Shown here: positions 43,642-61,881 of the stretch, piece by piece
Layout of the letters: each line of letters opens with the position of its first letter
Numbering within the stretch: position 1 is the first letter of the stretch
Source: Candidatus Methylomirabilota bacterium
GTDB taxonomy: Bacteria; Methylomirabilota; Methylomirabilia; Rokubacteriales; DASRDR01
Direction: 5' to 3'
Length of the DNA stretch: 64,000 nucleotides
Assembly: GCA_035550795.1 (NCBI GenBank)
Contig: DASZOL010000052.1
Location: 23,266-87,265, forward strand
Notes under the pieces: generated by a model
Seen by the model: only the letters and a program-made list of their open reading frames with translations
Told to the model about the DNA's origin: nothing
Databases searched by the model: none
Program-made: the position numbers and the translations under genes

Positions 43642-43642
43642 G

Positions 43643-48200: not shown

Positions 48201-48853
48201 CACCGGCCCCTGAAGGCCCGCACGCCGCCCGCGATGGCGCGCGGCGGCGGCTCCGGCTCTCCGTCGCGGATCCAGCGCCGGAACTCGGCGAAGGGGCCCC
48301 ACGCTTCCGAGTCCCAGACGCTGGCGAGCAGGCGCACACGGGCATCGGCAAGCGCGAGCTCGAAGTCCAGGCGCTGCTCCGGCGACACGGCGGGCGTCGC
48401 CTGCTGCCTGATCGTCTCTGCGACCCTCGTCAGCGTGCCAGCCAGCAGCACAACGTTGTTGCGTTCGGCCGTGCGGTCCTCCGGCGCCGTCTGGGCGCTC
48501 TGGGCGCCGCTGTAGCGGAGGCCGCTGACGTCCGTCGGCCCCGGGACGGTCGCGCCCGCCCAATCCCCGGACACCGCCACCGTGCGCGCCGGATTCACCT
48601 CAATCTGCACCGCCTGGTGCAGACCGTAGGCCAGCACGCCTGCCCCGAACAGCGCGAAGAACACCCCGGGTCCTACCCGCGAGATGAAGATCGACACGCC
48701 GCCCGGGAGCTGGAGCTTCCCCGTTCCCTTCTCCGCCAGCGGCATGCTCACAAACAGCCGGTAGCCAAGCCAGATGGCGAGAGCCCCCGACAGCGCGATG
48801 ACGAGCCGCTCGAGGTGTCTCGCCCCGATCCCGATCAGTTGCGGCTCAAGCAT
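48200..48853 (-). CDS. Hypothetical membrane protein
   Basis: Two or three TM helices. Sandwiched in an operon between the heme dioxygenase and the M48-like gene. Confidence 0.5.
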   Translation of the reverse strand: MLEPQLIGIGARHLERLVIALSGALAIWLGYRLFVSMPLAEKGTGKLQLPGGVSIFISRVGPGVFFALFGAGVLAYGLHQAVQIEVNPARTVAVSGDWAGATVPGPTDVSGLRYSGAQSAQTAPEDRTAERNNVVLLAGTLTRVAETIRQQATPAVSPEQRLDFELALADARVRLLASVWDSEAWGPFAEFRRWIRDGEPEPPPRAIAGGVRAFRGR

Positions 48854-48864
48854 GTCCTAACCTC

Positions 48865-51732
48865 CTATCTGAAGGCTTCGTCGGCCTCGGCCCCCCTACG
48901 CGGCTTCCAGTCCAGCGCGTAGTAGTCGCCGCGGTCCCGCGCCCATGGATCGAAGACGTTGACGACTCCGGCCAGCTCGGGCTCGAGCTCCGGGATCGTC
49001 CGGAGAAGCACACGCTTCAAGGGAGAGACCTCCACCTTACGACCGCCCGGTCTCCCCTGCTCCACCATCTTTCCGTCCGGACCGTTGTCTGTGACCCATC
49101 GCACGCCGAGGTGGCTGTAGAATTCGGGCCGGAAGCTGGAGGTGAAGAAGCGATCGCTGAACAGCCGGCGGGAGGCGTTGAGGATGAATACCTGGAGCTG
49201 CGTCTCCGAGATCGCGAACCCGTGAGGACGGGGGAACTCCGCGAGCCAGCCGACGACGGTGTCGATGTCCTCGACGTTGTCCACGATGCTCCCGTCAGGA
49301 TGACCCAGGCAGTCGTTGATCGGTGTGCCGTCGTCGTTCACCTGTGCGCTCGTGATCGGCTTAGAGGCGTCGCATCGATGCCGCCCGTACACGTCGCGCA
49401 GGACTCCGGTCAGACGCTCCTGCTCGATGCGCTCCGGGGTCCCCGCAACCAGCCGCCGATCCACGAAGTCGTCGAAGCTCGTCAGATGCCGGAGCCCGTA
49501 CTGCCGCCGGAACTCGTTGAACCTCGGGACGCCGCGCTCGCGGTCTCGAATCAGGTCGAGGGCGGCCACGTCGATCTTGCCCGTCGGACTCCCGGCCCCA
49601 GGCCGCTCGAGGGCCTGCAGAAACCGGGGGTGGTTCTGGAGCGTGAGGCGGCCGGCTCGCTGGCGCCCCAGGGAGACCACCCAGCTCACGAGCCCGTGCG
49701 CATGCATCGCGGCCGTCGCCTGGCCGCGGACGGTATCCACGACCGGGACCTTCATCCGGATGGCGGCGGGCCCGCCGTCCATCGTGCGGAGCTCGATGAG
49801 ATCCGGAAGCATGGGGTGCAGTCGGTAGACGGTGACGAACTCCTCGGGAAAGCTGAACGGCGAGCCGAAGTGGTTCGTCCCGCCGTTGACGTGCTCGGGG
49901 TTCCGAAGGCTCCAGACGTCCGTCCTCGCGGGGTCGTGGCGGCTGAAGGGCCGGCCGTCGGCGTACACGCGGCTGCCGAGCCCGAAGATGCCCGGGCCCG
50001 ACGCGAGGACCGAGTACCAGGCGGTCGCCTTGTCGGCGTCCCGGGACCGGGCGAGGGACTGGAGGACCTTCGCGAGCGCAACCCGGACGAGCTCGCTGTC
50101 GCTGGCGAGCAGACCGGACCAGTTGGCCTGCAGGGCCAGGTGGAGGGGCTCGTTGTAGAGGAGCTGCGGGGTCCACTCGATCGTGTGGATCTTCGCGATC
50201 TCCGCCGCGACGACCAGGCGCGCGACCTCGAAGAGCTCGCCGGCCCCGACGTCCCGGTAGCGCAGGACCCGCTCGGGCTGCCCGGGGTTCCGCAGGCCCG
50301 AGTCGGCGGCGGGGGTGGCGGCCGCCTGCCGCCGGAACGCGTCCACGAACAGGTTGTGCTCGCGCGCGAAGACGTTGTGGAGCACGCTGAGCCCGATGCT
50401 CCAGTTGTCAGGGAATGCTGCCGCTTCCTGGCCGGACCACCTAGCGTTGATCGGATCATCGGCCCCGAACACGGGGAGATAGCCGAGACGATCACCCGCG
50501 GCGGCGCGAGTGTCGAGAGGCAGCAGACGCAGCCTGGCCGGGTCGGCGGGATCGCGCTTGACACGGCGGCGGGACGCCTCGTCGTAGCCGTAGAGCTGAG
50601 AGGCGTCCCACCAAGCGGTGACGGTGTTGCCGGTGGTTCGAAAGGCGCGCGCGAGGTGCGCCCGGCCCCGGTGGTCGAAGATGGGCGGATCCGCCGCCTC
50701 CGCCAGCGTGGCGACGTCGACTCGGTCCGCCGCACGGCAGCCGAGCCGGGCCTCCGCCTCGGGCGTCAACGGCCGCTCGGCCTCATCGCTCCGCTCCGTC
50801 GCGCACCCCATGCCCATCGTCTCCGACCCGTTGCGACCCTCGGTGAGGTGGGAGAACCAGTCATGCGTCATGAACTGGATCCAGAAGGCCGCCAGCACAT
50901 TGAGGGCCGGCGCCTTCTTGTAGTCGCAGCTCGCCTCGGGAGCGTTGCCGGGCAGTCCACGGCCCGCGCGGCAGGAGTCGGGCGACGGCGATACCCGGCC
51001 GAGCAGCCGGCGGCTGATCACCTGGGGGTCTGGCCTCAGCAGGCCGAGACGCGCGCCGTGGCGGTTCCGCGCGAGGTCGGTGCGGCCAAGCTCCGGAAAC
51101 GTCGCCTCGAACTCCACGTTGCGGGCGAACGGCATGCCGGTGGAGCCCATGAGGGGATTCCGGATGTCGTTGCAGATCCCGGTGAGCGCGCGGTGGCGAA
51201 TCAGGTCGCCGGTGCACAGCTGCGCACCGGCTCCGCCCACGGCGGCGAAGTCCGGATGGCCCGGGGGTAGCCGCATCGCGGGCCATACCCTCAGCGCGGG
51301 ACCGAGGACCCCGTCGCGCCCGCGGACGTAGTCCCGATACGTCCCGCTGTTGTCGAAGAGGTTGAAACGGATCAGCTCGACGCGCTGGTACTCCAGGTCG
51401 ATGAGGGCCCCGTCGATCCCTCGCTGGTCGGGCCGCAACAGGCGAATGCCCAGGTCGGGCGAGGGCATCCGGCTGCCCCCGTCACCGGTCGCCCAGTAGC
51501 GGGGCCAGTCGACCCACGGGCCGCGGCGGACCTCCAGCGCCCGGGCTCCGCCTCGACAGCGGGCGCGCTCGTCGCCAACCTGGCCGAGAAACCGGTGAAC
51601 CCGGTCCTCCGCGACCGGGCGCAGCCCGGCCCACACGGTGCGGAGACAGGCCTCGAGATCCGCCGGCGTGTTGCCGCATCCGGCGATGAGCAGCCCCGCA
51701 CCCAGGACGAGCCAGAGCGCGCGGCAGTTCAC
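48865..51732 (-). CDS. Peroxidase-cyclooxygenase superfamily heme protein (animal heme peroxidase fold); alpha-dioxygenase/cyclooxygenase-like fatty acid dioxygenase, lipoprotein
   Basis: Lipobox LLIAGCG. Distal-His block LAAFWIQFMTHDWFSH. Catalytic Tyr/proximal His block EEFVTVYRLHPMLPD (Y-R-x-H as in plant alpha-DOX and COX). Confidence 0.8.
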   Translation of the reverse strand: MNCRALWLVLGAGLLIAGCGNTPADLEACLRTVWAGLRPVAEDRVHRFLGQVGDERARCRGGARALEVRRGPWVDWPRYWATGDGGSRMPSPDLGIRLLRPDQRGIDGALIDLEYQRVELIRFNLFDNSGTYRDYVRGRDGVLGPALRVWPAMRLPPGHPDFAAVGGAGAQLCTGDLIRHRALTGICNDIRNPLMGSTGMPFARNVEFEATFPELGRTDLARNRHGARLGLLRPDPQVISRRLLGRVSPSPDSCRAGRGLPGNAPEASCDYKKAPALNVLAAFWIQFMTHDWFSHLTEGRNGSETMGMGCATERSDEAERPLTPEAEARLGCRAADRVDVATLAEAADPPIFDHRGRAHLARAFRTTGNTVTAWWDASQLYGYDEASRRRVKRDPADPARLRLLPLDTRAAAGDRLGYLPVFGADDPINARWSGQEAAAFPDNWSIGLSVLHNVFAREHNLFVDAFRRQAAATPAADSGLRNPGQPERVLRYRDVGAGELFEVARLVVAAEIAKIHTIEWTPQLLYNEPLHLALQANWSGLLASDSELVRVALAKVLQSLARSRDADKATAWYSVLASGPGIFGLGSRVYADGRPFSRHDPARTDVWSLRNPEHVNGGTNHFGSPFSFPEEFVTVYRLHPMLPDLIELRTMDGGPAAIRMKVPVVDTVRGQATAAMHAHGLVSWVVSLGRQRAGRLTLQNHPRFLQALERPGAGSPTGKIDVAALDLIRDRERGVPRFNEFRRQYGLRHLTSFDDFVDRRLVAGTPERIEQERLTGVLRDVYGRHRCDASKPITSAQVNDDGTPINDCLGHPDGSIVDNVEDIDTVVGWLAEFPRPHGFAISETQLQVFILNASRRLFSDRFFTSSFRPEFYSHLGVRWVTDNGPDGKMVEQGRPGGRKVEVSPLKRVLLRTIPELEPELAGVVNVFDPWARDRGDYYALDWKPRRGAEADEAFR

Positions 51733-51842
51733 CGGACCGCGTCCCCCTCCCCGCCCGAACGACGGGACGGCCGGATCGGGTGGAACCCGACATACAATGA
51801 GACACGCGCAGACTGGACGGCTCGGCCCGGGGGAAAGGCAAG

Positions 51843-53057
51843 GTGACGCTCCTCAAGGCATTCCACGACGCGGTCATCGAGCTCACCAAGCTGGAGCGCC
51901 GAATCGATCCGTTCTTTCGCCCGGCCCTCGACGGCCTTCTGCGGGAGCCGCTGGCGGCGCTGACCCAGTTCCTCATCAACCTCGGGCGCCGGGACGAGGG
52001 GCTCCGGCTCGCCGAGGAGAGAGCCTTGCCAGGCGAGGAGGCGTTCCTCGACTCGATCATCGCGGACATGGCCGCGTACATGCGCGCCCACTACTCGCCG
52101 GGCCAGTTCGAGCGCGCCGGGAACACCAAGACCCATGGCGTGCTTCGCGGCGAGTTCACCGTGCGTGACGACGTGCCCGGGGAGTGGCGCCACGGCGTCT
52201 TCGCCGAGCCCCGGACCTACCGCGCCTGGGTTCGGTTCGCCGGGCCGGGCCCGGCGAGTCCGCCGGACATCGAGGAGGTGGGCGTCCTGAGCATCGGCGT
52301 CAAGCTGATGGGCGTGCCGGGGCCGAAGCTCCTCAGCGACGAGCGCTTCACCCAGGACTTCAGCGGCATCAGCGCGCCGACCTTCACGACGCCGGACGTC
52401 CGGGAGAACGCCAAGCTGCAGGCGGCCAGCCTGAAGGGCACGCCCCTCTTCTACTTCATCAATCCGTTCGATTCGCACCTCCTCGACGGCGTGATGCAGG
52501 GACTGTGGGCCCGGACGCACTCCAGTCCGCTGGAGACCCCGTACTGGAGCTGCGTCGCGTATCTCCTCGGGGAGGGACGGGCCATGCAGTACTCCTTCCG
52601 GCCCCGCCCGCGGACCCGGAGCCGGGTGCCCCGGCTGCCGCTGCGCCCACCAGACCACTACTTGCGGGAAACCATGGCGGCCACCCTCCGGCAACAGGAC
52701 GCCGAGTTCGACTTTCTCGTGCAGGTGCAGACCGACGCCCACCGCATGCCCGTGGAGAACGCGTCCGTGCGCTGGCCCGAGCGGCTCTCGCGGCCGGTGC
52801 CCGTCGCGCGCCTCCGCTTGCCGCGCCAGACGTTCGATTCCCCGGCGCAGCTGGCGTTCGCGCACAACCTGTCGTTCAATCCCTGGCACTGTGTCCCCGC
52901 CCACCGTCCGCTCGGGAACCAGAACCGGGGACGGCGTCGCCTCTACGGCGAGCTGTCTCGCCTGCGGCAGTCCATGAATGGCACGCCGCACCGCGAGCCG
53001 ACCGGCGACGAGGTGTTCGAGGATTCCTCGGATCAGTCACCGAAGCTCGTGAGGTAG
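51843..53057 (+). CDS. Catalase-related heme protein (mini-catalase of the allene-oxide-synthase / hydroperoxide-lyase type, Thr-His distal pair)
   Basis: ERAGNTKTHGVLRGEF has a distal His preceded by Thr rather than Val, as in catalase-related AOS. VRFAGPG resembles catalase VRFST. C-terminal RRRLYGELSRLR resembles the proximal-Tyr RLF.Y block. The opposite-strand ORF is low-complexity. Confidence 0.55.
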   Translation: MTLLKAFHDAVIELTKLERRIDPFFRPALDGLLREPLAALTQFLINLGRRDEGLRLAEERALPGEEAFLDSIIADMAAYMRAHYSPGQFERAGNTKTHGVLRGEFTVRDDVPGEWRHGVFAEPRTYRAWVRFAGPGPASPPDIEEVGVLSIGVKLMGVPGPKLLSDERFTQDFSGISAPTFTTPDVRENAKLQAASLKGTPLFYFINPFDSHLLDGVMQGLWARTHSSPLETPYWSCVAYLLGEGRAMQYSFRPRPRTRSRVPRLPLRPPDHYLRETMAATLRQQDAEFDFLVQVQTDAHRMPVENASVRWPERLSRPVPVARLRLPRQTFDSPAQLAFAHNLSFNPWHCVPAHRPLGNQNRGRRRLYGELSRLRQSMNGTPHREPTGDEVFEDSSDQSPKLVR

Positions 53058-54544
53058 CGCAGGGCGCGCAGGCCCGGCAGGAAGAAGTACGCGCCGCCCC
53101 GGACCGTGACGAACTGCGGGAGGCCGGTGATGCGCCGGCGCACCCCCCCCGCCTGCGGGAGGGAGAACGTGCTCGTGACGGGACAGCCGGAAATGGGCCC
53201 CCGACCCCCGACGATCGGGTCGCTCTCTTCGGCGAGGCCGTCGAACTTGGTGCCCATGATCCAGGCGCTCTGCACGAACTCGAACTGCCGGGCGATGTTG
53301 GCGCCAAGGCCGATGAAGTAGAGTCCGCGCTCCGCGTCCCCCGCGCCGCCGGGCCGAAGCGCCTCCTCGACCGGCAGCGACGTGCCGTACTCTCGCCCTC
53401 GCCGGAGGATCCGATGGAAGCGGGTGGACGCGACCACGTCCTCGCGAAAGCTCTTCCGGCCGAACCCGAGCGTCCGGATCAGGCGGCGAATGAAGCCCGC
53501 CGGGCCACCGGGCAGGTCGGCGTTGCGCGGGTTGGCGCGGCGAATGTGGGCCCCGAGCGGGCAACGCGTGCCCGCGGCATCGGAGTCGAACGTGAACTGA
53601 TTGTACCGAACCCCGTCCGGCGAGCCGGTCGCGAGCCCGGCGATCGGCCGGCCGCCGACTGTGATGAGCGGCTCACCCGTCATTGCGCGGCCGACCATGG
53701 CCTCGGCCAGCGCCCGCCGCGCCTGTGGATCGCCGTTCGTCTGCCGGTGCAGGAACTGCCAGAAGCCCCGCACGTCCTGCCGGAGCTGGCGGACGACGAG
53801 ATAGGTTCCGTTGCGGCCAACGTCCCGGCGGCCGGGAGCGCTGGCCGCCGGAGGCAGGTCGGCCACACGGTCGCCCTTCGGATCGATCAGCGGTCGGTCC
53901 GTGTACTTTCCGTACTCGTTGGGGTAACCGAGCAGGAACTCCCCGAGCGACACGACGTTCCCGTACTCGAGCAGGTCGCTTCCGTTCGCGGTCCTCCGCC
54001 CCTCCCAGTCGAGCACGGGCTGGCTGATGCCGTCGACGAAGCCGAACGGCTCGACGTCGTCGAGAGGGGCCGGGACCGGGCTCTCAAGCACCTGGAACGC
54101 CCTCGCCCAGGGATCGCACGTCGCCGTCAGCGTCCAGGACTCGATCTGCCCGGGCTCGGCATAGAGGAGGACCGCGACGTGAGGCACGTTGCCGGGTCCG
54201 CCCCAGTCCCAGTGCGCGGGGTCGCTGCCGCCAACGTCGCCCAGACGGCGGGAGCGGCTCTCCTCACCGGTCATGCCGGAGATGAACTCGGCGGAGAAAC
54301 CGCGGACGACCGCCGCCGGCACCGCCAGCGCCTCCAGCCCCTCGCGCGTGAAGGCCACCTGGAGGGCCGTCCTCGGCGGGGGGGCCGTCCGGACAGCCGT
54401 GGTGACCGGGGCCGCCCGCAGCCACGCCCGGGCGGCGCCGGGATCGACGACCCGGAGGAGGAAGAAGCGTGCCTCGGTCATGTGACCGTAGCCGTAGCGC
54501 ACGAGCCCCTGCACGTCCCCGTACTCGACCGCGAAAGGCGTCAT
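53033..54544 (-). CDS. Dyp-type peroxidase
   Basis: FGFVDGISQP (DyP GxxDG motif) and RCPLGAHIRRANPR (proximal His region). Confidence 0.8.
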   Translation of the reverse strand: MTPFAVEYGDVQGLVRYGYGHMTEARFFLLRVVDPGAARAWLRAAPVTTAVRTAPPPRTALQVAFTREGLEALAVPAAVVRGFSAEFISGMTGEESRSRRLGDVGGSDPAHWDWGGPGNVPHVAVLLYAEPGQIESWTLTATCDPWARAFQVLESPVPAPLDDVEPFGFVDGISQPVLDWEGRRTANGSDLLEYGNVVSLGEFLLGYPNEYGKYTDRPLIDPKGDRVADLPPAASAPGRRDVGRNGTYLVVRQLRQDVRGFWQFLHRQTNGDPQARRALAEAMVGRAMTGEPLITVGGRPIAGLATGSPDGVRYNQFTFDSDAAGTRCPLGAHIRRANPRNADLPGGPAGFIRRLIRTLGFGRKSFREDVVASTRFHRILRRGREYGTSLPVEEALRPGGAGDAERGLYFIGLGANIARQFEFVQSAWIMGTKFDGLAEESDPIVGGRGPISGCPVTSTFSLPQAGGVRRRITGLPQFVTVRGGAYFFLPGLRALRYLTSFGD

Positions 54545-54557
54545 CGGCAGGCCTCCA

Positions 54558-55859
54558 TCACAGGAGCAGGAGCCACTCCCGCGCCTCGGCGTCGGTCATC
54601 GGAGGGCGCTCCAGGCCCGTCCGAATGCGGCTGTTTCGCTCCAGCTCGAAGGCCGTGAGACCGGGATGGGCGTTGTACCAGACCTCGGTCGCCAGCTCGT
54701 GTCGGCGAATGAAGTACTTGAACTTCTGCTCGTCCTTGGCGCCGTCGAGGACGAGCCATCGCGTCCGCGGGTACCCAACGCCGTTGGTGAACACCACGTT
54801 CAGACCGAAGGCGACCTTGTTGATGAAGTCGTCCATGTAGCTCTCGAGGCTGCCGTCGTAGTTGCTGACGAAGAGCAACCGCCGCTTGTCGTCCAGGAAA
54901 GTCCAGCGAGCGAAGTGGATGGTGTTGACGCGCGCGAGGAACCCTCGCGTGTAGACGTGGCGGGTCGTGTAGGCCACGATCCAGAGGACGAAGATCAGGG
55001 TCGTGCGACGGAACCGACCCGGCTTGAGCGTGCCCATCGCGCTGAACTGATTGGTGACGTCGTGATCCTCGAGGTCGGCCAGACGCTTCACGTGCTCGAG
55101 GTCCGGCCGCGGCGCGATCTCCGGGTCCGTCCGCTCCCGACGGCGGAGCAGAAACGCAAACAGCGGGAGGTACAGCAGGAGGAGGGGCAGGGCGAGCAGC
55201 AGCGCCAGGGGCACGCCCGCCGCGTGGAGAAGCTTGCGGACTCGCCAGCCGGGCGGGGTGGGCCCGGGCGGGGTCAGGGCGAGGCGGCCGGCCTGGCGCT
55301 CCCGGCCGACGAAGGCGCGCAGATCGTCGTAGACCTGCGCGGGCGCCCGCCCGGCGAGGGCCCGCGCGTTCGCGTCCAGGTACGTCTCCAGCGCCTGGCG
55401 CAGCGCGCTCTCCTCCCGGACCTGCCGGACCGTTCGTCCCACCCAGTTCACGTAGTGGGCGGCCGCCGGGTGGTCGTGCGCCTTCATCCAGGCGAGCAGG
55501 TCACCGTCCGCCGGGCGTCCCCGACAGTGTGCGAATATGCGGTGGAGCCCCGGTCCGGCGCGCTCGCTCAGGTCCGCGAGGAGCTCGTCCGCCGGCCCGT
55601 CGCAGTCCCCCACGAAGGCGAGCGAGACGGCGTCGCGCGGCGGGGTCACTCCGTGGGCGGCGACGTCGTCCGCCGCGGGGTCGTCGAGCACGACGAAGCG
55701 TGCGAAGTGCAGACGCTCGAAGCGACCGAACGGAACGAGGTCGTTCTCCGGATCGACCACGCCGGGCCGGCGGTTCATGGAGGCGAGCAGCGTCCGGAGG
55801 TAGCCCTCGCGTCCGGGCTCGATCGCCGCCACGACCGCGAAGCTCGATTGAGGCGTCAT
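54558..55859 (-). CDS. Hypothetical membrane-associated protein (central TM segment)
   Basis: Conserved-looking blocks IHFARWTFLDDKRRLLFVSNYDGSLESYMDDFINKVAFGLN. Between the DyP and GMC genes. No family recognised. Confidence 0.5.
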   Translation of the reverse strand: MTPQSSFAVVAAIEPGREGYLRTLLASMNRRPGVVDPENDLVPFGRFERLHFARFVVLDDPAADDVAAHGVTPPRDAVSLAFVGDCDGPADELLADLSERAGPGLHRIFAHCRGRPADGDLLAWMKAHDHPAAAHYVNWVGRTVRQVREESALRQALETYLDANARALAGRAPAQVYDDLRAFVGRERQAGRLALTPPGPTPPGWRVRKLLHAAGVPLALLLALPLLLLYLPLFAFLLRRRERTDPEIAPRPDLEHVKRLADLEDHDVTNQFSAMGTLKPGRFRRTTLIFVLWIVAYTTRHVYTRGFLARVNTIHFARWTFLDDKRRLLFVSNYDGSLESYMDDFINKVAFGLNVVFTNGVGYPRTRWLVLDGAKDEQKFKYFIRRHELATEVWYNAHPGLTAFELERNSRIRTGLERPPMTDAEAREWLLLL

Positions 55860-55864
55860 CGTCC

Positions 55865-56296
55865 TCAGAACTTCAGCGCGAAGTCCATCAGGCGCTTCTG
55901 GTTCCAGTAGACCTTGCCCAGGTAGAGTCCCGGCCCGATCTGGCGGATCTCGTCGCGGATCCACTGCGCGATGATCGACGTGTCCGAGTAGTCGAGGACG
56001 ATGCACTCCTTGCCGTCGAGCCAACTCGGTCCCTTGTAGATCCGGGCGAGGATGGCGTTGAATCCGAAGGGGAGGATCCGGTTCTTCAGCAGGCCCTTCT
56101 TCCCGTCGAACGTCTTGCCCTGCCACGCGAAATGGCTGATGAGCGTCGCGACGTCCGCGCTGTAACTCGTGCCGGGGGCGACGATCGCGGTGCCCTGCGC
56201 CTCGCCGTCGGGAATCTCCCCCGCCGGGCTGTTCGTGAAGAGGTCGTCAAGCTCCTTCTGGGACATCGTCAGGAGCTTCGGGACGTCGTATGTCAT
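55865..56296 (-). CDS. Hypothetical protein (143 aa)
   Basis: Clean ORF 5 nt upstream of the next gene. It may be the N-terminal portion of a domain fused to the downstream gene in other genomes. Confidence 0.45.
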   Translation of the reverse strand: MTYDVPKLLTMSQKELDDLFTNSPAGEIPDGEAQGTAIVAPGTSYSADVATLISHFAWQGKTFDGKKGLLKNRILPFGFNAILARIYKGPSWLDGKECIVLDYSDTSIIAQWIRDEIRQIGPGLYLGKVYWNQKRLMDFALKF

Positions 56297-56327
56297 GTCG
56301 GTGATCTCCTCCGCGGGCGACCGCTCG

Positions 56328-58220
56328 TCAATCGCCCCGCTCCGCGAGAATGTCGTCGGCCGCCTTCTCGGCGACCATGTAGACCGCGCTGACCGGAAAG
56401 AAGCCGGGGATCCGCGGGAAGACCGACGCGTCGACGACCCGCAGACCTCGGGTACCGTGCACGCGGAAGTCGCCGCTGAGCACGCCGCCGTCGTCGCGCG
56501 GTCCGATCGGGCAGCTACAGGACGCGTGGTGGCCCCAGGCGTTGGCTCGCACGAACTCTCGGAGCTCTGCGTCCGATTGCCGATGGTCGCCAGGCTGCTC
56601 CTCCGCGACGATGAGCCCGCCGCGTCTGAGGTGCGCGTTGATGCGACGCACGAGCTTGATCCCGGCGACGACGGAGTCCAGATCCTCGCCAGCCGCGTCG
56701 TCGCCCTCCTCGAAGTAGCGGAAGCTGACGTGTGGCGGCTCCCGCGGATCGGGCGAGCGGAGCGTGACCTCGCCCGCCCGGTTACGGGTGTGGGCCTTGA
56801 GGATCGTCCACGTGAGGTAGTTGAGGCGCGTGGCGACGAGCGTCGAGTAGCTCGGGAAGTAGCCGTCGAACGGGGCCAGAAGGCCGAAGCAGTAGAGGTC
56901 CGGCAGCACCCGCTCCGGGGCGGAGCGCGCGCTCACGCCGAGGATCGCGCCGTTGCTCGCATACACCCCTCTCCGCCGGTTCGCCCACTCGCGGTGCTGC
57001 GGATCCCCCTCCGCGAACCGGGCGCCTTCGAGCACCTTCCACTGCGCGAAGGCCATGCGGCTCACCACTCCGATCTCGTAGCGGTCCTGGAGGTTCTGGC
57101 CCACGCCGGGGAGGTCAACTCGGACCCCGATGCCGTACCGCTCGAGCACGCCGCGCGGCCCCACCCCGGAAAGCATCAACAGCTGCGGCGTGTTGAAGGC
57201 CCCGCCCGCCAGGATGACCTCCGCGGAGGCACGGATCTCCCGGCGCTCCCCCGCCTCGCCGCTTGGGAACCGGTGCGCGCGGTAGAGCCGTTCTCCGCGC
57301 AGGTACTCCACGCCGAGCGCCCGGTTTCCCGCGCCGAAGAGCACGCGCGTGACCAGCGCGTCGAGCTCCAGCCGGAGACGGTCCGGATGCCGCCGGGCCA
57401 CGTCGAGGACGCGCTCTCGCGCGCCCATCCGCGCGTGGTCGCGGGTGGCGAGGGGCAGGTACCCGACGCCCACGGCGTTTTGCTTCACCAGGCGCCAGTC
57501 GTTCGGATCGGCCTTGCCCTGGAGCAGCCACCACAGCCGGGTGATCGGCGGTGCAACCTCGCGGATCGCCAGGCGTGCCGAGCGCTTCATCACCTTGGCC
57601 AGCGCCCGGTCCCGCAAGATGGGCCGGATGTCTGCCCGCTCGGTGTGGAGCCAACCCGCCCAGCCGTGATGCGTGGGATCGATCCCGAGCTTGGCGAGCC
57701 AGCGGTAGACCGGGCGATGGTGGCAGTTCTCGACGCGCCGGAGGTAGCGGCGCATGTTGCCGGCGCTCCACGAGCGATCCCCGGTGAGTGCGGCGATGCC
57801 ATCCCAGTCGGCGTCGTGGGGATAGACGAAGATCAGCGCGTTGTGCGCGGTGCAGCCTCCCAGCGTCCCCGCCCGCGGGTACAGCACGCCGTTGACCTTC
57901 CGGCCGTCCCAGGTCTCCCGGTATTTCGGGTCCCGGCGCTGCTCCGCGTCGCTCTCGTAGTGCCGGACGAAGAAGTTCCAGGCGAGCGCGTCGTTCTCGG
58001 ACGCGAAGGCGTGGAAGGCCGGGACGTCGTAGGCGGCGGGGAGGCGGTTGCCGCCCGGGTCGACCGGGTCCCCTCCCGTCAGCCGGCGCGGATCGCCGCC
58101 GGCCTCGAGCAGCGTCACCGTGCGTCCCGCCTCGGCGAGCCGGGCGGCCACCGTCCCTCCGCCGGCGCCGGAGCCGACGACGACGTATTCGCACTCCGTG
58201 GAGCGAGGGTCAGCTGCCAT
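56328..58220 (-). CDS. GMC family FAD-dependent oxidoreductase (choline dehydrogenase-like, probably H2O2-forming)
   Basis: YVVVGSGAGGGTVAARLAE (FAD Rossmann). GMC signature blocks and C-terminal active-site region ...HASCSCPIG...VVDASVFP. Confidence 0.85.
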   Translation of the reverse strand: MAADPRSTECEYVVVGSGAGGGTVAARLAEAGRTVTLLEAGGDPRRLTGGDPVDPGGNRLPAAYDVPAFHAFASENDALAWNFFVRHYESDAEQRRDPKYRETWDGRKVNGVLYPRAGTLGGCTAHNALIFVYPHDADWDGIAALTGDRSWSAGNMRRYLRRVENCHHRPVYRWLAKLGIDPTHHGWAGWLHTERADIRPILRDRALAKVMKRSARLAIREVAPPITRLWWLLQGKADPNDWRLVKQNAVGVGYLPLATRDHARMGARERVLDVARRHPDRLRLELDALVTRVLFGAGNRALGVEYLRGERLYRAHRFPSGEAGERREIRASAEVILAGGAFNTPQLLMLSGVGPRGVLERYGIGVRVDLPGVGQNLQDRYEIGVVSRMAFAQWKVLEGARFAEGDPQHREWANRRRGVYASNGAILGVSARSAPERVLPDLYCFGLLAPFDGYFPSYSTLVATRLNYLTWTILKAHTRNRAGEVTLRSPDPREPPHVSFRYFEEGDDAAGEDLDSVVAGIKLVRRINAHLRRGGLIVAEEQPGDHRQSDAELREFVRANAWGHHASCSCPIGPRDDGGVLSGDFRVHGTRGLRVVDASVFPRIPGFFPVSAVYMVAEKAADDILAERGD

Positions 58221-58236
58221 CAGAGCCCGTGCCGCC

Positions 58237-60696
58237 TTAGAAGGTCTTGAGGAACTCGATCAAGGCGCGCTTGTCCTCGTCGCTCAGCCCCGGCTCCTCC
58301 GTGAAGACGCTCGTGCCGAAGTAGTGGCCCCGGTCGACGACGAAGTCGGGGCACTTGCTGAGAGCGAGCAGCCGGGGCACGAGTGGGGCGAAGGCGCGGC
58401 GCGCCTCCTCGTCGCTGCCCTTTCCGTCCAGCTTCTTCAGGTCCCGAATGAGCTCGTGCAGCAACGGGAGCATTCGCTTCAGGTGCGCCGCGCGCTGCGC
58501 CAGGTCGGCGCCGTCGGGCATGAGCTCCAGGTTCGCCAGCAGGTTCACTGGAGTGCCGGCGGGAATGGGCCCGATCTGGACGCCGCCCTCCCCGAAGAGC
58601 CAGGGCGCGTGCCGGTTGAGCCGCCCGAGCAACGGCGCCAGCTCGTCGGGGAGGTACCCCGCCGGCACTCGGAGGAAGCTCTGGGCCGTCGTCCGATCGA
58701 TGGTTCCCGGCACCTTGTCGCCCAGCACCGCGTCCTTGTCGCGGCGCTCCGGCCAGAGCAGCTTCTCGATCGAGTCCTGGAAGGATCCCAGGCGGGCCTC
58801 GACCGACGGGCTCGGGTCGAAGCGCCCCAGGCTGTTGTTCTGGAGGAAGGGCGCCGTCGACCAGACGCTCACGAGCGAGGACGGGCGCGTGTACCCGCGG
58901 CCGCCGGCCGGCATCTGGTAAGGCCGCGGCGCGCCGGTGAAGGGATCGTGCACGGTGATCGTGCCGACCGACGGGAGATCCTTGTAGGACTGGGAGGAGA
59001 AGTTGTCCCAGATGTTGCCGCCGATCGCGTTCGTCGCGAGCGGGCTGCACGCGTTGGTCTCGAGGAGCGTGACCGGCACCCGAATCTCGTTCGACAGGAA
59101 ATTTCCCTCGAGGAAGTCGTCGGCGAGCACGATCTGCCGCATCTTCTGCTTGTACTCGTCGGTCTTGGTCCAGTCCCAGTAGCGGTTCCAGCAGGTGAGG
59201 TAGCCCGGCCCCGCGCAGCCACCCGGGTCCATGCCGGGGGCGGGCTCGGGGCCCTTGCTCGAATGGCAGCGAGCGCAGCGGTCGGCGAACGCGAGCTTCC
59301 CGCGCCGGAGCGCGGCTTGGTCCTTGGTCAGGAAGGCGGCGCCCCCCGGGGCGTCCCGCAGGCGGTGCGGGGTCGCCGCCCTCAGGAAGAAGAGCGCCAT
59401 GGCCGGCGACTGGGCCTCGGTCGCCAGCCAGTAGTTGGAGTTCTTGCGGGCGACGCTGATCTCAATCGGCGTGATGGGCTTGCCGCCGACCAAGGCCTTG
59501 AAGTGCAGCAGCCACTCCTCGCTGAACAGGCCGATATTCAGGTACACACGGTTGAGCGCTCCAAGCGCGCCCACCGAGTCCGAGCCGTCCTTGAGGACGC
59601 GCGGCGTCCAGACCGTGTCAGGCTTCTGGAAGAACTCCGTCAGCGGGCCGGTCGTGACGTAGTCGTTCAGCTGGCGGTTGTGGAGAGCTCCTCCTGTGAG
59701 CGTTTCCTTCCCCCACCGCTTCGCGAGCTCCAGGCGCGGGCCCAGTTGGTAGACCGCGTTCATCGTGCGAGGGTTGTTGATGTAGTCGGTCGACACGAGG
59801 GAGGTGTCGAGGGCGCCCGGCCGGGACGTGTTGAGCAGCTGGTACATGTAGTTCGTCCGGTCGTACTTCCAGCTGAAGATGCGCTGGACCCAGAAGTACT
59901 GGGCGCCCACGTTGGAGGCCAGGTTCTCCCACCTGGGGTTCTCGGCGTCGCTCGGCGGCTTCGTGGGGCTGGGGCCTACGTGGCAGAAGCCGCACGACAT
60001 GCCCACGCGGTAGGGCCGAACCAGGTCCTTCGAGTTGTAGTACTTCTCGTCCGTGTAGTACTTCACCGGATCCCACTTCTTGGCGGCCGCCTCGTCGAAG
60101 TCAGGGTTCGGGAACAGCCGGAGACCCACGATCCCGGAGGCGTGTCCGTAGTAGGACCCGACCGGGATGCTCCGGCCGCGGGCGCCGATCCGCACGCCGG
60201 GGTACTTCTGTTCGTTCTCGAAGGGATCGGGAGGGCAGTCCGCGCGGCGATTGTCGAGCCACAGCCCGTATCGCCGGGGATCCGGCCCGGTCGGCTTTTC
60301 GAAGCAGGGCTCGTTGATCAGCCCGAGATACGACCAGCGGTTGTGCCGGCCGAAATGCTTGAGGGTCGGATCGGGATGGGACGACACGATCTTGAGGAGG
60401 TCGAAGACCCCGAAGCTCGATACGCTGATCGCATCCCAGAAGCGGTCGTTCCCGCCCGTCCAGACGATCCAGGTATTGCGGCCCTGGACCTCTTCGGGAG
60501 TCAGACTGCCGCCGCCGTCCATGTCATGGAAGTAGTCCTCGGTCGCCGCGGGAAACGAGGCGACCGGCCGGCCGGCCCGGCTGGCCTCGTCGAGGACCTC
60601 CCCCGGCCGTGGCTCGGTCTTCCCGCAGGCCGCCAGCAAGAGCGTGACGCACAGGAACAGCAGCACTCCACGCCGGCATGAGCCACGGTCGGCCAT
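58237..60696 (-). CDS. Large diheme c-type cytochrome lipoprotein (two CxxCH), RoxA / CCP-MauG-like superfamily
   Basis: Lipobox LLLAACG. Heme-binding motifs CGFCH (about residue 235) and CARCH (about 474). RBS AAGGAGA before ATG 60696. About 820 aa. Confidence 0.6.
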   Translation of the reverse strand: MADRGSCRRGVLLFLCVTLLLAACGKTEPRPGEVLDEASRAGRPVASFPAATEDYFHDMDGGGSLTPEEVQGRNTWIVWTGGNDRFWDAISVSSFGVFDLLKIVSSHPDPTLKHFGRHNRWSYLGLINEPCFEKPTGPDPRRYGLWLDNRRADCPPDPFENEQKYPGVRIGARGRSIPVGSYYGHASGIVGLRLFPNPDFDEAAAKKWDPVKYYTDEKYYNSKDLVRPYRVGMSCGFCHVGPSPTKPPSDAENPRWENLASNVGAQYFWVQRIFSWKYDRTNYMYQLLNTSRPGALDTSLVSTDYINNPRTMNAVYQLGPRLELAKRWGKETLTGGALHNRQLNDYVTTGPLTEFFQKPDTVWTPRVLKDGSDSVGALGALNRVYLNIGLFSEEWLLHFKALVGGKPITPIEISVARKNSNYWLATEAQSPAMALFFLRAATPHRLRDAPGGAAFLTKDQAALRRGKLAFADRCARCHSSKGPEPAPGMDPGGCAGPGYLTCWNRYWDWTKTDEYKQKMRQIVLADDFLEGNFLSNEIRVPVTLLETNACSPLATNAIGGNIWDNFSSQSYKDLPSVGTITVHDPFTGAPRPYQMPAGGRGYTRPSSLVSVWSTAPFLQNNSLGRFDPSPSVEARLGSFQDSIEKLLWPERRDKDAVLGDKVPGTIDRTTAQSFLRVPAGYLPDELAPLLGRLNRHAPWLFGEGGVQIGPIPAGTPVNLLANLELMPDGADLAQRAAHLKRMLPLLHELIRDLKKLDGKGSDEEARRAFAPLVPRLLALSKCPDFVVDRGHYFGTSVFTEEPGLSDEDKRALIEFLKTF

Positions 60697-60971
60697 GTAG
60701 GTCTCCTTGAGCGCTTCGTGTCCGCTCGGTCGCACGAGCCGCGACACCCCCGGACGCTGAGCGTGAACGGTGTCCCGCTGTGGTACCCAGCCGAGCGAGG
60801 GCAGTCCCCCGGTCGCCCGGGGCCGGCGCCGGCCCCGGCCGGCCGGGCGGCGGGGGCGGCGCGTCGAGCCGATCAGGCGCGCCTCCGTGTCGTCGAGGCC
60901 CCTCCGCGGCGCCCGACCGCGCGGGACATCGCCGAAGCACGGCGACATCGGCGCCCTTCCATCCCGCACCC

Positions 60972-61811: not shown

Positions 61812-61881
61812 CCCGAGCCGGCTCGGGCAGGCGCGATGCGCAGCGTCCCCGACGGCGCCCTGCCCGGCCGCGGCACGTTTT

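Follow-up and report, generated by a model that had tools for sequence, protein, structure and literature searches.

The 64,000-nucleotide stretch of DNA analysed here (the window) carries a gene cluster that is widespread among bacteria, here in one copy of full size. Read from sequence, its function may be to make and process lipid hydroperoxides, most likely fatty-acid ones of the oxylipin type, a reading that we hold with about even confidence. The conserved heart of the system comprises a catalase-family protein (CAT), a dye-decolorizing-type peroxidase (DyP) and two further proteins, u433 and u143. Two heme modules that activate O2 accompany this core, singly or together: an alpha-dioxygenase-type protein (DOX), and a diheme cytochrome (CYT) that is mostly paired with a GMC flavoprotein (GMC). 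The genes of the window copy are:

48200..48853, minus strand: predicted membrane protein, 217 aa (GC3 0.89)
48865..51732, minus strand: DOX, 955 aa (Pfam An_peroxidase)
51733..51842, unstranded: DOX/CAT divergent intergenic region, 110 bp (from ORF coordinates)
51843..53057, plus strand: CAT, 404 aa, y4iL-type catalase-family hemoprotein
53033..54544, minus strand: DyP, 503 aa, long (C/D-like) dye-decolorizing-type heme peroxidase
54558..55859, minus strand: u433, 433 aa (tandem ABM-type model)
55865..56296, minus strand: u143, 143 aa, family without Pfam match
56328..58220, minus strand: GMC, 630 aa (GMC_oxred_N and GMC_oxred_C)
58237..60696, minus strand: CYT, 819 aa, predicted diheme cytochrome lipoprotein (CGFCH and CARCH)

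All seven ORFs that the initial annotation had grouped are present where it placed them, and codon-position GC supports the strand of each gene (GC3 of 0.89-0.93 vs 0.64-0.75 for antisense ORFs). Five of them, CYT-GMC-u143-u433-DyP, form a minus-strand operon with gaps of 5-31 bp and DyP as its last gene. CAT is convergent on this operon, with a 3' overlap of 25 bp, and divergent from DOX; the intergenic region between these two is presumed to be the site of both promoters and of any regulatory sites. A consensus scan of positions 48000-62000 found no sigma-70-type promoter, this consensus being uninformative for the lineage. The cluster spans 11.8 kb (12.5 kb with the 48200-48853 gene), less than the thirteen kilobases first given. 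GC content is flat throughout the window (~0.70), so the cluster is not a compositional island, and the window resembles Rokubacteria (Methylomirabilota) and not myxobacteria, the group first named for comparison.

A CAT relative is encoded in 362 genome loci; those flanked by ~10 kb on either side, 56 in number, are called full here. Of these 56, which span ~12 phyla, 53 have all four core genes, showing that the core is kept together across them. Gene order and orientation vary between phyla; u143>u433>DyP remains together, and no families other than these seven recur in the loci. CYT with GMC and DOX are interchangeable add-ons: CYT is found in 39 full loci (35 of them with GMC), GMC in 35 and DOX in 17. 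Most core clusters (49/53) have CYT and/or DOX, while four have no oxygenase within 10 kb, which argues against the lipid-peroxide reading. The grouping of heme enzymes that the initial annotation pointed out is hence real, and the recurrent synteny supports its proposal of a dedicated unit acting on a lipophilic substrate. Four heme-protein families and a GMC flavoprotein are indeed present, with the An_peroxidase, DyP and GMC calls being solid.

DOX is predicted to be an alpha-dioxygenase-like lipoprotein of the peroxidase-cyclooxygenase superfamily. It matches Pfam An_peroxidase (E 8e-59), and its best solved relatives are the alpha-dioxygenases of rice (4kvj, E 3e-51) and Arabidopsis (4hhr, E 6e-46). 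Among DOX proteins of the clusters, 18 of 21 retain the distal His290 (THDW), 21 of 21 the proximal His516 (KIHTIEW) and 20 of 20 the catalytic Tyr636 (VYRLH); the heme ligands and this Tyr are common to cluster DOX, the two plant enzymes, CalDOX and LepDOX. The window protein is a long form, lipoprotein-anchored, with an N-terminal extension of ~180 aa and large internal insertions, and is ~29-38% identical to CalDOX/LepDOX in aligned segments. The Microseira cluster has a short DOX that matches rice alpha-DOX from one end to the other (E 1.5e-124) and is ~43% identical to LepDOX, a characterised cyanobacterial enzyme that converts C10-C14 acids to aldehydes (PMC8720084). For characterised alpha-dioxygenases no DyP or catalase partners are reported, and gene clusters are not mentioned (PMC8720084). 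We propose that DOX is an optional input module acting as a fatty-acid dioxygenase. The 2-hydroperoxides produced by alpha-dioxygenases decompose spontaneously, so that it is not evident why heme enzymes would be needed downstream, a point against the lipid-peroxide reading.

CAT bears a distal Thr-His motif (GNTKTHG) and a proximal-side motif, R364-x3-Y368; residues T97, N189, R364 and Y368 are kept in 71/71 orthologs, and H98 in 67/71. It has no match in Pfam (Catalase included) or NCBIfam, and no significant match to E. coli KatE in a profile comparison. Its >6500 homologs are named 'catalase family protein' by NCBI, and it shares 36.6% identity (E 2e-34) with the NGR234 y4iL locus, annotated 'catalase'. 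The AF2 model is of low confidence (pLDDT 46). Searched against the PDB, a profile of 27 orthologs recovered only three chains: 1u5u (E 0.014, over ~60 residues, a remote similarity) and 3dy5, both coral allene oxide synthase (AOS), and 3e4w, the mini-catalase MAP_2744c. Together, the weak profile match, the motifs and the NCBI naming suggest that CAT is a distant member of the catalase fold; the catalase-related call thus stands as a distant relationship, by profile and motifs, and fails at the Pfam Catalase match. We take coral AOS and MAP_2744c to share with CAT the Thr-His distal motif and the proximal Tyr ligand, and their substrates to be fatty-acid hydroperoxides, not H2O2. Coral AOS is the catalase-related domain of an AOS-lipoxygenase fusion; CAT is set apart by ~85 aa of additional helical sequence at its N-terminus and by a partner that is no lipoxygenase. 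We propose CAT as the core component that transforms hydroperoxides.

DyP is recognised by Pfam Dyp_perox_C (23.7 bits; cut-off 20 bits) and, under the model's cut-off, by TIGR01413 (E 1e-18), and it matches PDB 8re3 (E 2.7e-41) and DyP2 (4g2c, E 6e-20). Aligned to 8re3, it has GXXDG (as GFVDG), AHIRRANPR around the proximal His, and RRG with the distal Arg at matching places. The core component u433 represents a previously unannotated family. Its confident model (pLDDT 92), a tandem ABM-type alpha+beta barrel plus a hydrophobic helix, points to two ferredoxin-like (ABM, dimeric alpha+beta barrel) domains linked by long helices, the strongly hydrophobic helix ~213-236 being probably a monotopic membrane anchor. 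It shows no sequence similarity to known ABM proteins and no match to Pfam ABM. Structurally, its closest neighbours are ABM enzymes of polyketide tailoring and not of lipid metabolism, which speaks against the lipid-peroxide reading. Compared to WhiE-ORFI (9lmn), AbxO (9ltx), ActVA-Orf6-type monooxygenases and IsdG/MhuD, u433 differs in its inserted pair of long helices with the hydrophobic anchor, in its coupling to DyP (by fusion and synteny) and in lacking a polyketide context. As for u143, none of 34 orthologs has a Pfam match, even at E 10, and no NCBIfam or PDB match was found. It has 25 invariant residues (including W57, G59, K60 and an RDEIR motif), is present in 54/56 full loci and lies nearly always directly upstream of u433. 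Natural fusions join u433 to DyP in five cluster representatives and u143 to u433 in two (P0371 and P0401). This, together with the near-invariant gene order, shows that u143, u433 and DyP behave as one unit.

GMC is an FAD-dependent oxidoreductase (GMC_oxred_C, E 9e-29; GMC_oxred_N, E 4e-19) and an optional module travelling with CYT. Its nearest NCBIfam model, a choline dehydrogenase subfamily, scores 221 bits, far under the 605-bit cut-off. That it produces H2O2 is an assumption, and many bacterial GMC enzymes are dehydrogenases.

Judging by its motifs and profile matches, CYT belongs to the diheme cytochrome c peroxidase (CCP)/MauG/RoxA superfamily, within which it is divergent. Both CxxCH motifs, CGFCH (235-239) and CARCH (474-478), are invariant in 33 orthologs. 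All 33 match NF040606 (di-heme cytochrome c peroxidase; best 2e-15, below cut-off) and 20 match Pfam RoxA-like_Cyt-c, while the NCBIfam models of RoxC, RoxB and RoxA are matched by 11, 5 and 4 of them, always below cut-off. No RoxA, CCP or MauG chain was recovered from the PDB by sequence or profile. A degenerate CCP/MauG motif, RPSSLVSVWSTAPFLQNNSLG, can be read in the sequence, with Gln or Leu in place of the missing MauG-motif His, and the heme motifs are 239 aa apart vs 199 aa in RoxA. The RoxA-like assignment first made hence holds at superfamily level, and does not at that of the RoxA/RoxB/RoxC cut-offs, heme spacing and His. RoxA, RoxB and RoxC resemble CYT in having two covalent c-type hemes, Sec-type export, distant CCP/MauG kinship and weak HMM similarity (PMC6311187, PMC10837239). 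Their heme motifs are CSACH/CASCH, and CYT, unlike them, has a genomic context without rubber-catabolic genes. Another comparison is offered by the PA2078-PA2077 oleate-diol synthase operon of Pseudomonas aeruginosa, encoding fatty-acid diheme cytochrome c peroxidases (FadCcp). These are a periplasmic oleate 10S-dioxygenase and a diol synthase, which dioxygenate the free fatty acid and go on to transform the resulting hydroperoxide (PMC4496055). All are exported diheme CxxCH proteins of the CCP/RoxA superfamily, and by the spacing of its heme motifs CYT resembles PA2077/PA2078 (245/235 aa; PMC4496055). The Pseudomonas proteins are of ~630 aa, each with a second diheme paralog as partner, whereas CYT is an 819-aa lipoprotein partnered by GMC. 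We propose that CYT is an optional module working as a periplasmic oxygenase.

Among the proteins of the window cluster, only DOX and CYT carry a signal peptide or lipobox. The window DOX has the lipobox LLIAGC, and 8/10 long-form orthologs have one too. The CYT ORF extends to 60969, and a start at ATG 60696 yields the lipoprotein signal MADRGSCRRGVLLFLCVTLLLAAC; a signal peptide or lipobox was found in 39/50 CYT ORFs. For CAT, DyP, GMC and u143, an export signal was found in none of 43-82 orthologs each, and CAT, DyP and u143 are predicted to be cytoplasmic. Describing the enzymes as extracytoplasmic was therefore mostly wrong, given that three of the five named (CAT, DyP and GMC) have no export signal. 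This topology is awkward for the lipid-peroxide reading, with the proposed oxygenases being periplasmic lipoproteins and the other three enzymes lacking export signals.

Accessory genes and paralogous systems provide a lipid context. Epoxide-hydrolase-type genes (HGFP + SHDWGG) lie inside or beside seven clusters, their products having only epoxide hydrolases among the top 14 PDB matches (best 2.4e-30). Lipase_3 genes are in or beside four clusters, ABHD18 in two and patatin in or near two. Lipolytic or epoxide-hydrolase genes reach only ~1/4 of the clusters, the window having none, which counts against the lipid-peroxide reading. In the paralogous y4iL system of NGR234, a catalase is followed by a diheme CCP and a patatin. 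An An_peroxidase-type gene precedes a catalase-family gene in Methylobacterium currus, and in Methylobacterium sp. NMS14P such a gene precedes an epoxide hydrolase. Plasmids of Roseomonas, Agrobacterium, Paracoccus and Brucella carry a trio in which a catalase-family gene is followed by one homologous to the C-terminal domain of u433 (HMM E 1e-18 to 3e-20) and then by a DyP gene. In Roseomonas and Agrobacterium the trio is divergent from oleate hydratase, 3-hydroxyacyl-CoA dehydrogenase and acyl-CoA thioesterase genes. The embedded lipases, patatins and epoxide hydrolases, and the trio beside oleate hydratase, point to fatty-acid hydroperoxide and epoxide chemistry, not to an attack on rubber or lignin.

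In such a pathway, a fatty acid released by a lipase would receive O2 from DOX and/or CYT (predicted periplasmic-side lipoproteins in the window), and the resulting lipophilic hydroperoxide would reach the cytoplasmic face of the membrane. There CAT could rearrange or cleave this hydroperoxide, giving an epoxide, epoxy-alcohol, allene oxide or aldehyde, by analogy with the catalase-related enzymes of corals and Nostoc. The membrane-tethered u143-u433-DyP unit might then reduce the product or oxidise it further, and GMC might oxidise a resulting alcohol or provide the peroxide that primes the heme enzymes.

We found no report of the full cluster or its core in the open-access literature, in agreement with the earlier claim that it had not been described as a unit. 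What qualifies this claim is the tandem of Nostoc punctiforme, where published accounts describe a linoleate 10S-dioxygenase (Npun_R5469) and a catalase-related 10S-hydroperoxide lyase (Npun_R5468) (Brash et al., 2014, via PMC13049297, PMC6307994). In both the tandem and the window a dioxygenase gene of the peroxidase-cyclooxygenase superfamily adjoins a catalase-related gene, whose product in Nostoc uses the hydroperoxide of its partner. The likeness of CAT to Npun_R5468 is one of family and gene pairing. The window DOX is alpha-dioxygenase-like (4kvj, 4hhr), with no cyclooxygenase among its PDB matches, while the Nostoc 10S-DOX is cyclooxygenase-like. Moreover, the dioxygenase is optional in the cluster and CAT is tied to DyP, u433 and u143, which are no part of the tandem as those accounts present it.

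Chance juxtaposition of unrelated redox genes has in its favour only the prior that such genes abound in soil-bacterial genomes. The synteny data refute it, the core being complete despite reordering, the window operon tightly spaced and core genes fused in some clusters, and we regard it as practically negligible. An extracellular oxidative attack on polyisoprene (rubber, polyprenols) or lignin-like aromatics, combining RoxA-like cleavage with DyP and H2O2 from GMC, would suit the superfamily of CYT, its weak RoxC matches and the pairing of DyP with GMC oxidases, described in the literature as classically ligninolytic in fungi. We find it highly improbable. DyP, GMC and CAT lack export signals in all orthologs, CYT departs from Rox proteins in cut-offs, heme spacing and the missing His, cores without CYT or GMC are common in cyanobacteria and actinobacteria, and the flanks hold no recurrent genes for oligo-isoprenoid uptake or beta-oxidation, or for aromatic catabolism. 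Among the three substrates originally suggested, unsaturated lipid is the best supported, polyisoprenoid and aromatic polymer being less so.

It seems improbable too that the cluster tailors or turns over a hydrophobic metabolite other than a lipid (such as an aromatic polyketide, quinone, pigment or tetrapyrrole). In that case the ABM-fold u433, alongside DyP, would serve as an oxygenase without cofactor, a decarboxylase or a heme degrader of the IsdG kind. Across 82 loci, the +/-10 kb neighbourhoods show no recurrence of PKS, NRPS, terpene, tetrapyrrole or iron-uptake genes; accessory genes that do recur encode lipases, patatins, epoxide hydrolases and fatty-acid dioxygenases, and u433 is <13% identical to polyketide enzymes. 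Unlikely, yet deserving more weight, is membrane repair or detoxification, in which CAT and the membrane-tethered DyP unit would clear lipid or organic hydroperoxides arising from oxidative stress or from unsaturated fatty acids that are toxic and of exogenous origin; the oxygenase modules would then be secondary additions. Every core enzyme consumes peroxide, four core clusters have no nearby oxygenase, and the paralogous CAT-ABM-DyP trio adjoins a TetR regulator, efflux genes and oleate hydratase, which is a detoxifier of unsaturated fatty acids. Fatty-acid hydroperoxides are also toxic when they accumulate (PMC4496055). However, 49/53 core clusters encode their own O2-activating enzyme, which would itself be a source of the peroxides to be removed. 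Among neighbouring regulators, response regulators of the OmpR or LuxR type and histidine kinases recur, but no peroxide-stress family does, and a pathway of defined intermediates is suggested by the lipases and epoxide hydrolases embedded in clusters.

The 48200-48853 gene starts 11 bp downstream of DOX and is probably co-transcribed with it. Its 217-aa product has no match in Pfam or NCBIfam; tblastn matches are confined to the Rokubacteria/Methylomirabilota-type loci L001 and L003-L007, and the protein is an accessory of Rokubacteria-type clusters.

The genes named in the initial annotation of this locus, which had proposed an island of oxidative heme enzymes, all exist as open reading frames (ORFs) where it had placed them. 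With a GC content of ~70%, long ORFs occur on either strand of the window, yet the strand assignments held: GC3 is 0.89-0.93 on the strand originally chosen and 0.64-0.75 on the other, for every gene. GC content is flat along the window, so the locus is not an island in the compositional sense. The genes are arranged as follows:

58237-60696, minus strand: CYT, a diheme cytochrome lipoprotein; first gene of the minus-strand operon
56328-58220, minus strand: GMC, a flavoenzyme; second operon gene
55865-56296, minus strand: u143, a 143-aa protein; third operon gene
54558-55859, minus strand: u433, a 433-aa protein; fourth operon gene
53033-54544, minus strand: DyP, a dye-decolorizing-type peroxidase; last operon gene
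51843-53057, plus strand: CAT, a catalase-family (y4iL-type) protein; convergent with DyP, which it overlaps by 25 bp
48865-51732, minus strand: DOX, an alpha-dioxygenase-like lipoprotein; divergent from CAT, with 110 bp between them
48200-48853, minus strand: a membrane protein of 217 aa; comes after DOX

The CYT-GMC-u143-u433-DyP operon is tight, with gaps of 5-31 bp. A scan of positions 48000-62000 for sigma-70 promoters and terminators gave nothing exceeding shuffled expectation.

A synteny scan anchored on CAT, with one genome per species, yielded 362 loci. The best 80 of these span Methylomirabilota, Pseudomonadota, Acidobacteriota, Cyanobacteriota, Actinomycetota, Chloroflexota, Planctomycetota, Eremiobacterota, Gemmatimonadota, Binatia, Thermodesulfobacteriota and Myxococcota. 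Among these 80, CAT from Rokubacteria (Methylomirabilota) is 88% identical to that of the window, so that Rokubacteria, and not the myxobacteria initially proposed for comparison, are the likely source lineage. Only seven families recur across the loci when these are analysed by tblastn and ORF clustering. Module counts come from the 56 loci flanked by about 10 kb on either side: a complete core of CAT, DyP, u433 and u143 is found in 53 of them, CYT in 39, GMC in 35 and DOX in 17. By type, 28 core clusters carry CYT and GMC, 11 carry DOX, four carry CYT, four consist of the core only and six have everything, the window being of this last type. Both proteins initially left as unknowns therefore belong to the core, and the cytochrome, the GMC enzyme and the dioxygenase are optional. 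Across phyla, CAT, CYT, GMC and DOX change places and orientation; the succession u143>u433>DyP is nearly fixed. Recurrent synteny despite such shuffling is strong evidence for functional linkage: the genes are a conserved unit, and their chance juxtaposition is excluded.

Some loci depart from this scheme. In L073 and L074 (Acidobacteriaceae, Bryobacterales) no partner gene accompanies the CAT ortholog over a distance of 10 kb. Four Terriglobales loci (L060:14047-15027, L064, L065:14116-15054 and L067) share a gene of ~310 aa directly after DyP, which in L060 and L065 stands between DyP and DOX; this gene matches nothing in Pfam and resembles none of the other families of the cluster.

The annotation of CAT as a catalase-related protein with a Thr-His motif survived in part. 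At a threshold of E 0.01 CAT matches no Pfam or NCBIfam model, those for catalases included, and as a single-sequence query it retrieves nothing from the PDB. A profile of 27 orthologs gives only weak PDB matches, to 1u5u (E 0.014), 3dy5 (0.08) and 3e4w (2.1); these are coral allene oxide synthase (the first two) and MAP_2744c, all catalase relatives using fatty-acid hydroperoxides. CAT is 36.6% identical to the product of the y4iL locus of NGR234, annotated 'catalase', and its homologs are named 'catalase family protein' by NCBI. Conservation among orthologs is high (T97 71/71, H98 67/71, N189 71/71, R364 and Y368 71/71) and follows the catalase-related pattern (a distal His, with Thr before it in the hydroperoxide-specific members, an Asn likewise distal, and Arg four positions ahead of the proximal Tyr), these heme-position roles being assigned by motif and not from a structure. 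The AF2 model, built on a shallow alignment of 12 sequences (68-88% identity), is unusable (pLDDT 46), and comparison with E. coli KatE by hhalign is not significant, so that the assignment of CAT as a catalase-related hemoprotein is probable, not proven.

The putative distal His98 is replaced in four of the 71 orthologs (L030, L039, L080 and L082), by Gln in three and by Tyr in one. These proteins still keep Thr97 and the Arg-x3-Tyr motif, and may have a changed chemistry or be inactive copies. Another ~310-aa gene, c14, lies between the alpha-dioxygenase and u143 genes in three cyanobacterial loci (L045:5325-6272, L023:5456-6373 and L038:5592-6524) and at L012:10897-12213. Its motifs KKAIHAHASVAK and SSYGDSRLFFRH resemble the distal and proximal signatures of catalases. 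It has no Pfam match; hhalign against KatE aligns the distal-His motif but is not significant (E 0.17), and neither is the comparison with the CAT profile. If the resemblance is real, these clusters would carry two different catalase-like proteins, with c14 placed like the catalase-related lyase gene of Nostoc.

The DyP call is genuine: the protein matches PDB entry 8re3 with an E of 2.7e-41 over both halves, and the motifs GFVDG (GXXDG), AHIRRANPR (proximal His) and RRG (distal Arg) are aligned. It scores 23.7 bits against Pfam Dyp_perox_C (cut-off 20) and 67.7 bits against TIGR01413, under the cut-off of 100.5. The GMC assignment is equally sound, with GMC_oxred_N and GMC_oxred_C both above the Pfam cut-off and the N-terminal FAD-binding GxGxxG motif present (VVGSGAGGG, residues 14-22). 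Among NCBIfam models, that of the choline dehydrogenase subfamily comes nearest, at a score far under its cut-off.

For u143 and u433, searches of Pfam, NCBIfam and the PDB were empty even at permissive thresholds; in particular, u433 matches no Pfam family, ABM or related, even at E 1. In its predicted structure, u433 has two ferredoxin-like beta-alpha-beta domains forming a barrel, as in the ABM fold. The family is large, with ~2700 representatives of 50%-identity clusters. Natural fusions follow gene order: five representatives join u433 to DyP (P0389, P0435, P0475, P0487 and P0419) and two join u143 to u433 (P0371 and P0401). An apparent homology between u433 and DyP (hhalign E 2e-43) was an artefact of read-through ORFs, and clean alignments show no similarity. 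P0390 (692 aa) and P0370 (602 aa) bear other unexplained extensions or insertions.

DOX belongs without difficulty to the peroxidase-like dioxygenases, scoring 200 bits against Pfam An_peroxidase (cut-off 25, E 8e-59), and its closest solved relatives in a PDB search are plant alpha-dioxygenases (E 3e-51). The distal His290, proximal His516 and catalytic Tyr636 fall on the corresponding motifs when DOX is aligned with rice alpha-DOX, and are kept in 18/21, 21/21 and 20/20 cluster proteins, respectively. At 955 aa and with a lipobox, the window DOX represents the long form; it is not colinear end to end with the ~620-aa alpha-DOX, matching it in five separate stretches, and has an N-terminal extension of ~180 aa and insertions relative to it. 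The short form of L038 aligns with rice alpha-DOX over its full length (E 1.5e-124). LepDOX, which turns C10-C14 fatty acids into aldehydes (PMC8720084), is ~43% identical to this short cluster DOX. We considered whether LepDOX and CalDOX could be the Leptolyngbya cluster genes themselves; with identities of only ~43% and ~36% they are homologs of cluster DOX and different genes.

CYT had been described as a RoxA-like diheme protein. The two heme motifs stand: CGFCH and CARCH, 239 aa apart, are invariant CxxCH motifs among orthologs, and CYT resembles RoxA-type rubber oxygenases in its N-terminal export signal (lipobox LLLAAC). The resemblance to RoxA itself is slight. The hallmarks of RoxA are CSACH and CASCH motifs ~199 aa apart and the MauG motif P-Y/F-x-H-N-G/S-S-V-P (PMC6311187); in CYT both the heme motifs and their spacing differ, and the His of the MauG motif is absent (PFLQNNSLG in the window, PFLLNNSVG in the ortholog consensus). 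None of the curated NCBIfam models for RoxA, RoxB and RoxC matched the window protein, and in the PDB, sequence and profile searches matched nothing beyond the heme motif common to c-type cytochromes, with no RoxA, CCP or MauG chain. A relationship to the Rox and CCP proteins surfaced only on scanning all 33 orthologs against NCBIfam and Pfam. RoxC is matched by 11 of them, RoxB by five and RoxA by four (best E 4e-7, 8e-8 and 5e-4, all partial, weak and below cut-off), Pfam RoxA-like_Cyt-c by 20, below cut-off, and the diheme CCP model NF040606 by 33/33 (best E 2e-15, below the 150-bit cut-off), a similarity at superfamily level only. The 239-aa spacing falls within that of the Pseudomonas FadCcp enzymes PA2077 and PA2078, which is 245 and 235 aa, respectively (PMC4496055); CYT has a signal peptide. 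In one locus, two CYT paralogs stand in tandem (L048:3816-8696).

Signal peptides or lipoboxes were seen in 39 of 50 CYT ORFs and in eight of ten long-form DOX orthologs. Short-form DOX, from cyanobacteria, actinobacteria and Chloroflexota, has neither, and the CAT, DyP, GMC and u143 ORFs are without a signal-like N-terminal hydrophobic segment, bar one DyP ORF. Since export signals are restricted to CYT and long DOX, the extracytoplasmic battery of enzymes imagined at the outset is wrong for most components.

Lipid genes accompany several clusters. Lipid-ester hydrolases of three unrelated families lie in or beside them: Lipase_3 with a GHSLG motif (four loci), ABHD18 (two) and patatin (two). 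An alpha/beta hydrolase of epoxide-hydrolase type, absent from the window, is found in or beside seven clusters: inside at L008:11442-12329, L012:12233-13117, L013:8975-9952 and L018:11248-12087, and adjoining at L019:18970-19869 and in L021 and L022. In four clusters it stands between CAT and DyP. The protein has HGFP and SHDWGG with an Asp nucleophile and lacks GxSxG, and every one of its top 14 PDB matches is an epoxide hydrolase (best E 2.4e-30). Hydroperoxides are turned into epoxides (allene oxides, epoxy-alcohols) by the catalase-related enzymes already known.

Similar associations occur around more distant, plasmid-borne paralogs of CAT. On pNGR234a of Sinorhizobium fredii NGR234 (L085:5908-11961), the y4iL 'catalase' is followed by genes for a hypothetical protein, a 'di-heme-cytochrome C peroxidase' and a patatin-like phospholipase, an arrangement that recalls the CAT, CYT and lipase logic in miniature on a symbiosis plasmid. 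In one Methylobacterium a catalase-family gene is preceded by a peroxidase-family gene, and in another it is followed by one for an 'epoxide hydrolase family protein'. Roseomonas, Agrobacterium, Paracoccus and Brucella carry an operon, divergent from a TetR gene, in which a catalase-family gene is followed by one for a 203-248-aa protein and then by DyP (alphaproteobacterial plasmids, L088:4947-8064, L091:4947-8064, L089:4953-8209 and L092:5034-8100). The protein in the middle has a single ABM domain, homologous to the C-terminal one of u433 (E 1e-18 to 3e-20). In Roseomonas and Agrobacterium the trio lies beside, and is divergent from, TetR, acyl-CoA thioesterase, 3-hydroxyacyl-CoA dehydrogenase and oleate hydratase genes, and in Paracoccus it lies beside acyl-CoA dehydrogenase, ETF and efflux genes. 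Being plasmid-borne and flanked by IS elements, the operon is probably mobile.

We read the cluster as a pathway of oxylipin type, a reading to which we give an even chance. In such a pathway the alpha-dioxygenase, the diheme cytochrome or both would oxygenate a fatty acid, and CAT would then convert the hydroperoxide (2-hydroperoxides decay on their own). Further processing would fall to the GMC enzyme and to u143, u433 and DyP, acting as a unit tethered to the membrane. In the window, a hydroperoxide made in the periplasm would have to reach cytoplasmic enzymes. Precedents are the tandem of 10S-DOX and catalase-related lyase in Nostoc (PMC13049297) and the Pseudomonas operon of diheme dioxygenase and diol synthase (PMC4496055). 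The closest rival, detoxification or repair of lipid hydroperoxides, involves the same chemistry with a different purpose, and we find it rather unlikely. Tailoring of a non-lipid hydrophobic metabolite, to which only the structural neighbours of u433 point, is improbable, and attack on a polymer such as rubber or lignin even more so: the localisation data and the failed RoxA tests speak against it, and with it against the polyisoprene or aromatic polymer substrates first envisaged.

The initial claim that these genes had not been described as a unit is only partly true. The pairing of a dioxygenase with a catalase-related protein and diheme fatty-acid oxygenases are of already known kinds. 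In the open-access literature we found the core (y4iL-type CAT, ABM-fold u433, u143 and long DyP) nowhere described, nor its fusions, nor the modular oxygenase add-ons, and nothing on the cluster among work on DyP combined with GMC and catalase family protein, on y4iL, or on operons of alpha-dioxygenase and DyP. The core stands a substantial chance of being a new system by itself. More tentatively, it might be an unrecognised machine spanning phyla, in which a DyP tethered to the membrane by u433 and u143, together with the Thr-His catalase-like protein CAT, would handle lipid hydroperoxides and epoxides there, with DOX or CYT-GMC as swappable front ends, making up a family of bacterial oxylipin pathways.

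To our knowledge only a handful of bacterial oxylipin systems are known (the Pseudomonas oleate-diol synthase, the Nostoc 10S-DOX and lyase, and scattered lipoxygenases and alpha-dioxygenases). If the oxylipin reading is true, the cluster adds a far more widespread one (362 loci with a CAT relative), places three large protein groups, now hypothetical or vaguely named (u433, u143 and the 'catalase family proteins' of y4iL type), in a physiological setting and gives a role to a class of cytoplasmic, membrane-tethered DyP peroxidases; the natural substrates of DyP enzymes are, as far as we know, a long-standing open question. The pathway products might serve soil bacteria and cyanobacteria as signals, as defence compounds or as intermediates of membrane repair. 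The enzyme sets can be tested in cultured strains of Paraburkholderia, Rhizobium, Streptomyces, Microseira and Scytonema, and possible uses in biocatalysis include production of fatty aldehydes, epoxy-fatty acids and hydroxy-fatty acids.

Several further features border the cluster in the window, all on the minus strand. About 4.5 kb away, 43643-44308 encodes an OmpR-type response regulator (of a family with Response_reg and Trans_reg_C domains), adjoined by a large ORF at 42178-43857. Members of this family are also found close to the cluster in six other loci, at distances varying from 1 to 8 kb, so linkage to the cluster is uncertain. An ORF of up to 583 aa at 46812-48563 has a HEVGH zinc-peptidase motif and a weak Peptidase_M48 match (E 1e-5), and is conserved beside the cluster only in Rokubacteria-type loci (L006 and L007); its GC3 is only 0.83 and its N-terminal part looks non-coding, so the true start is probably later. 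On the other side, the CYT ORF stays open for 91 further codons upstream of its probable ATG (60697-60969), an Arg- and Pro-rich stretch that is unlikely to be translated. Upstream of CYT, 60972-61811 holds a 279-aa gene without family match, common only to L003 and L004.
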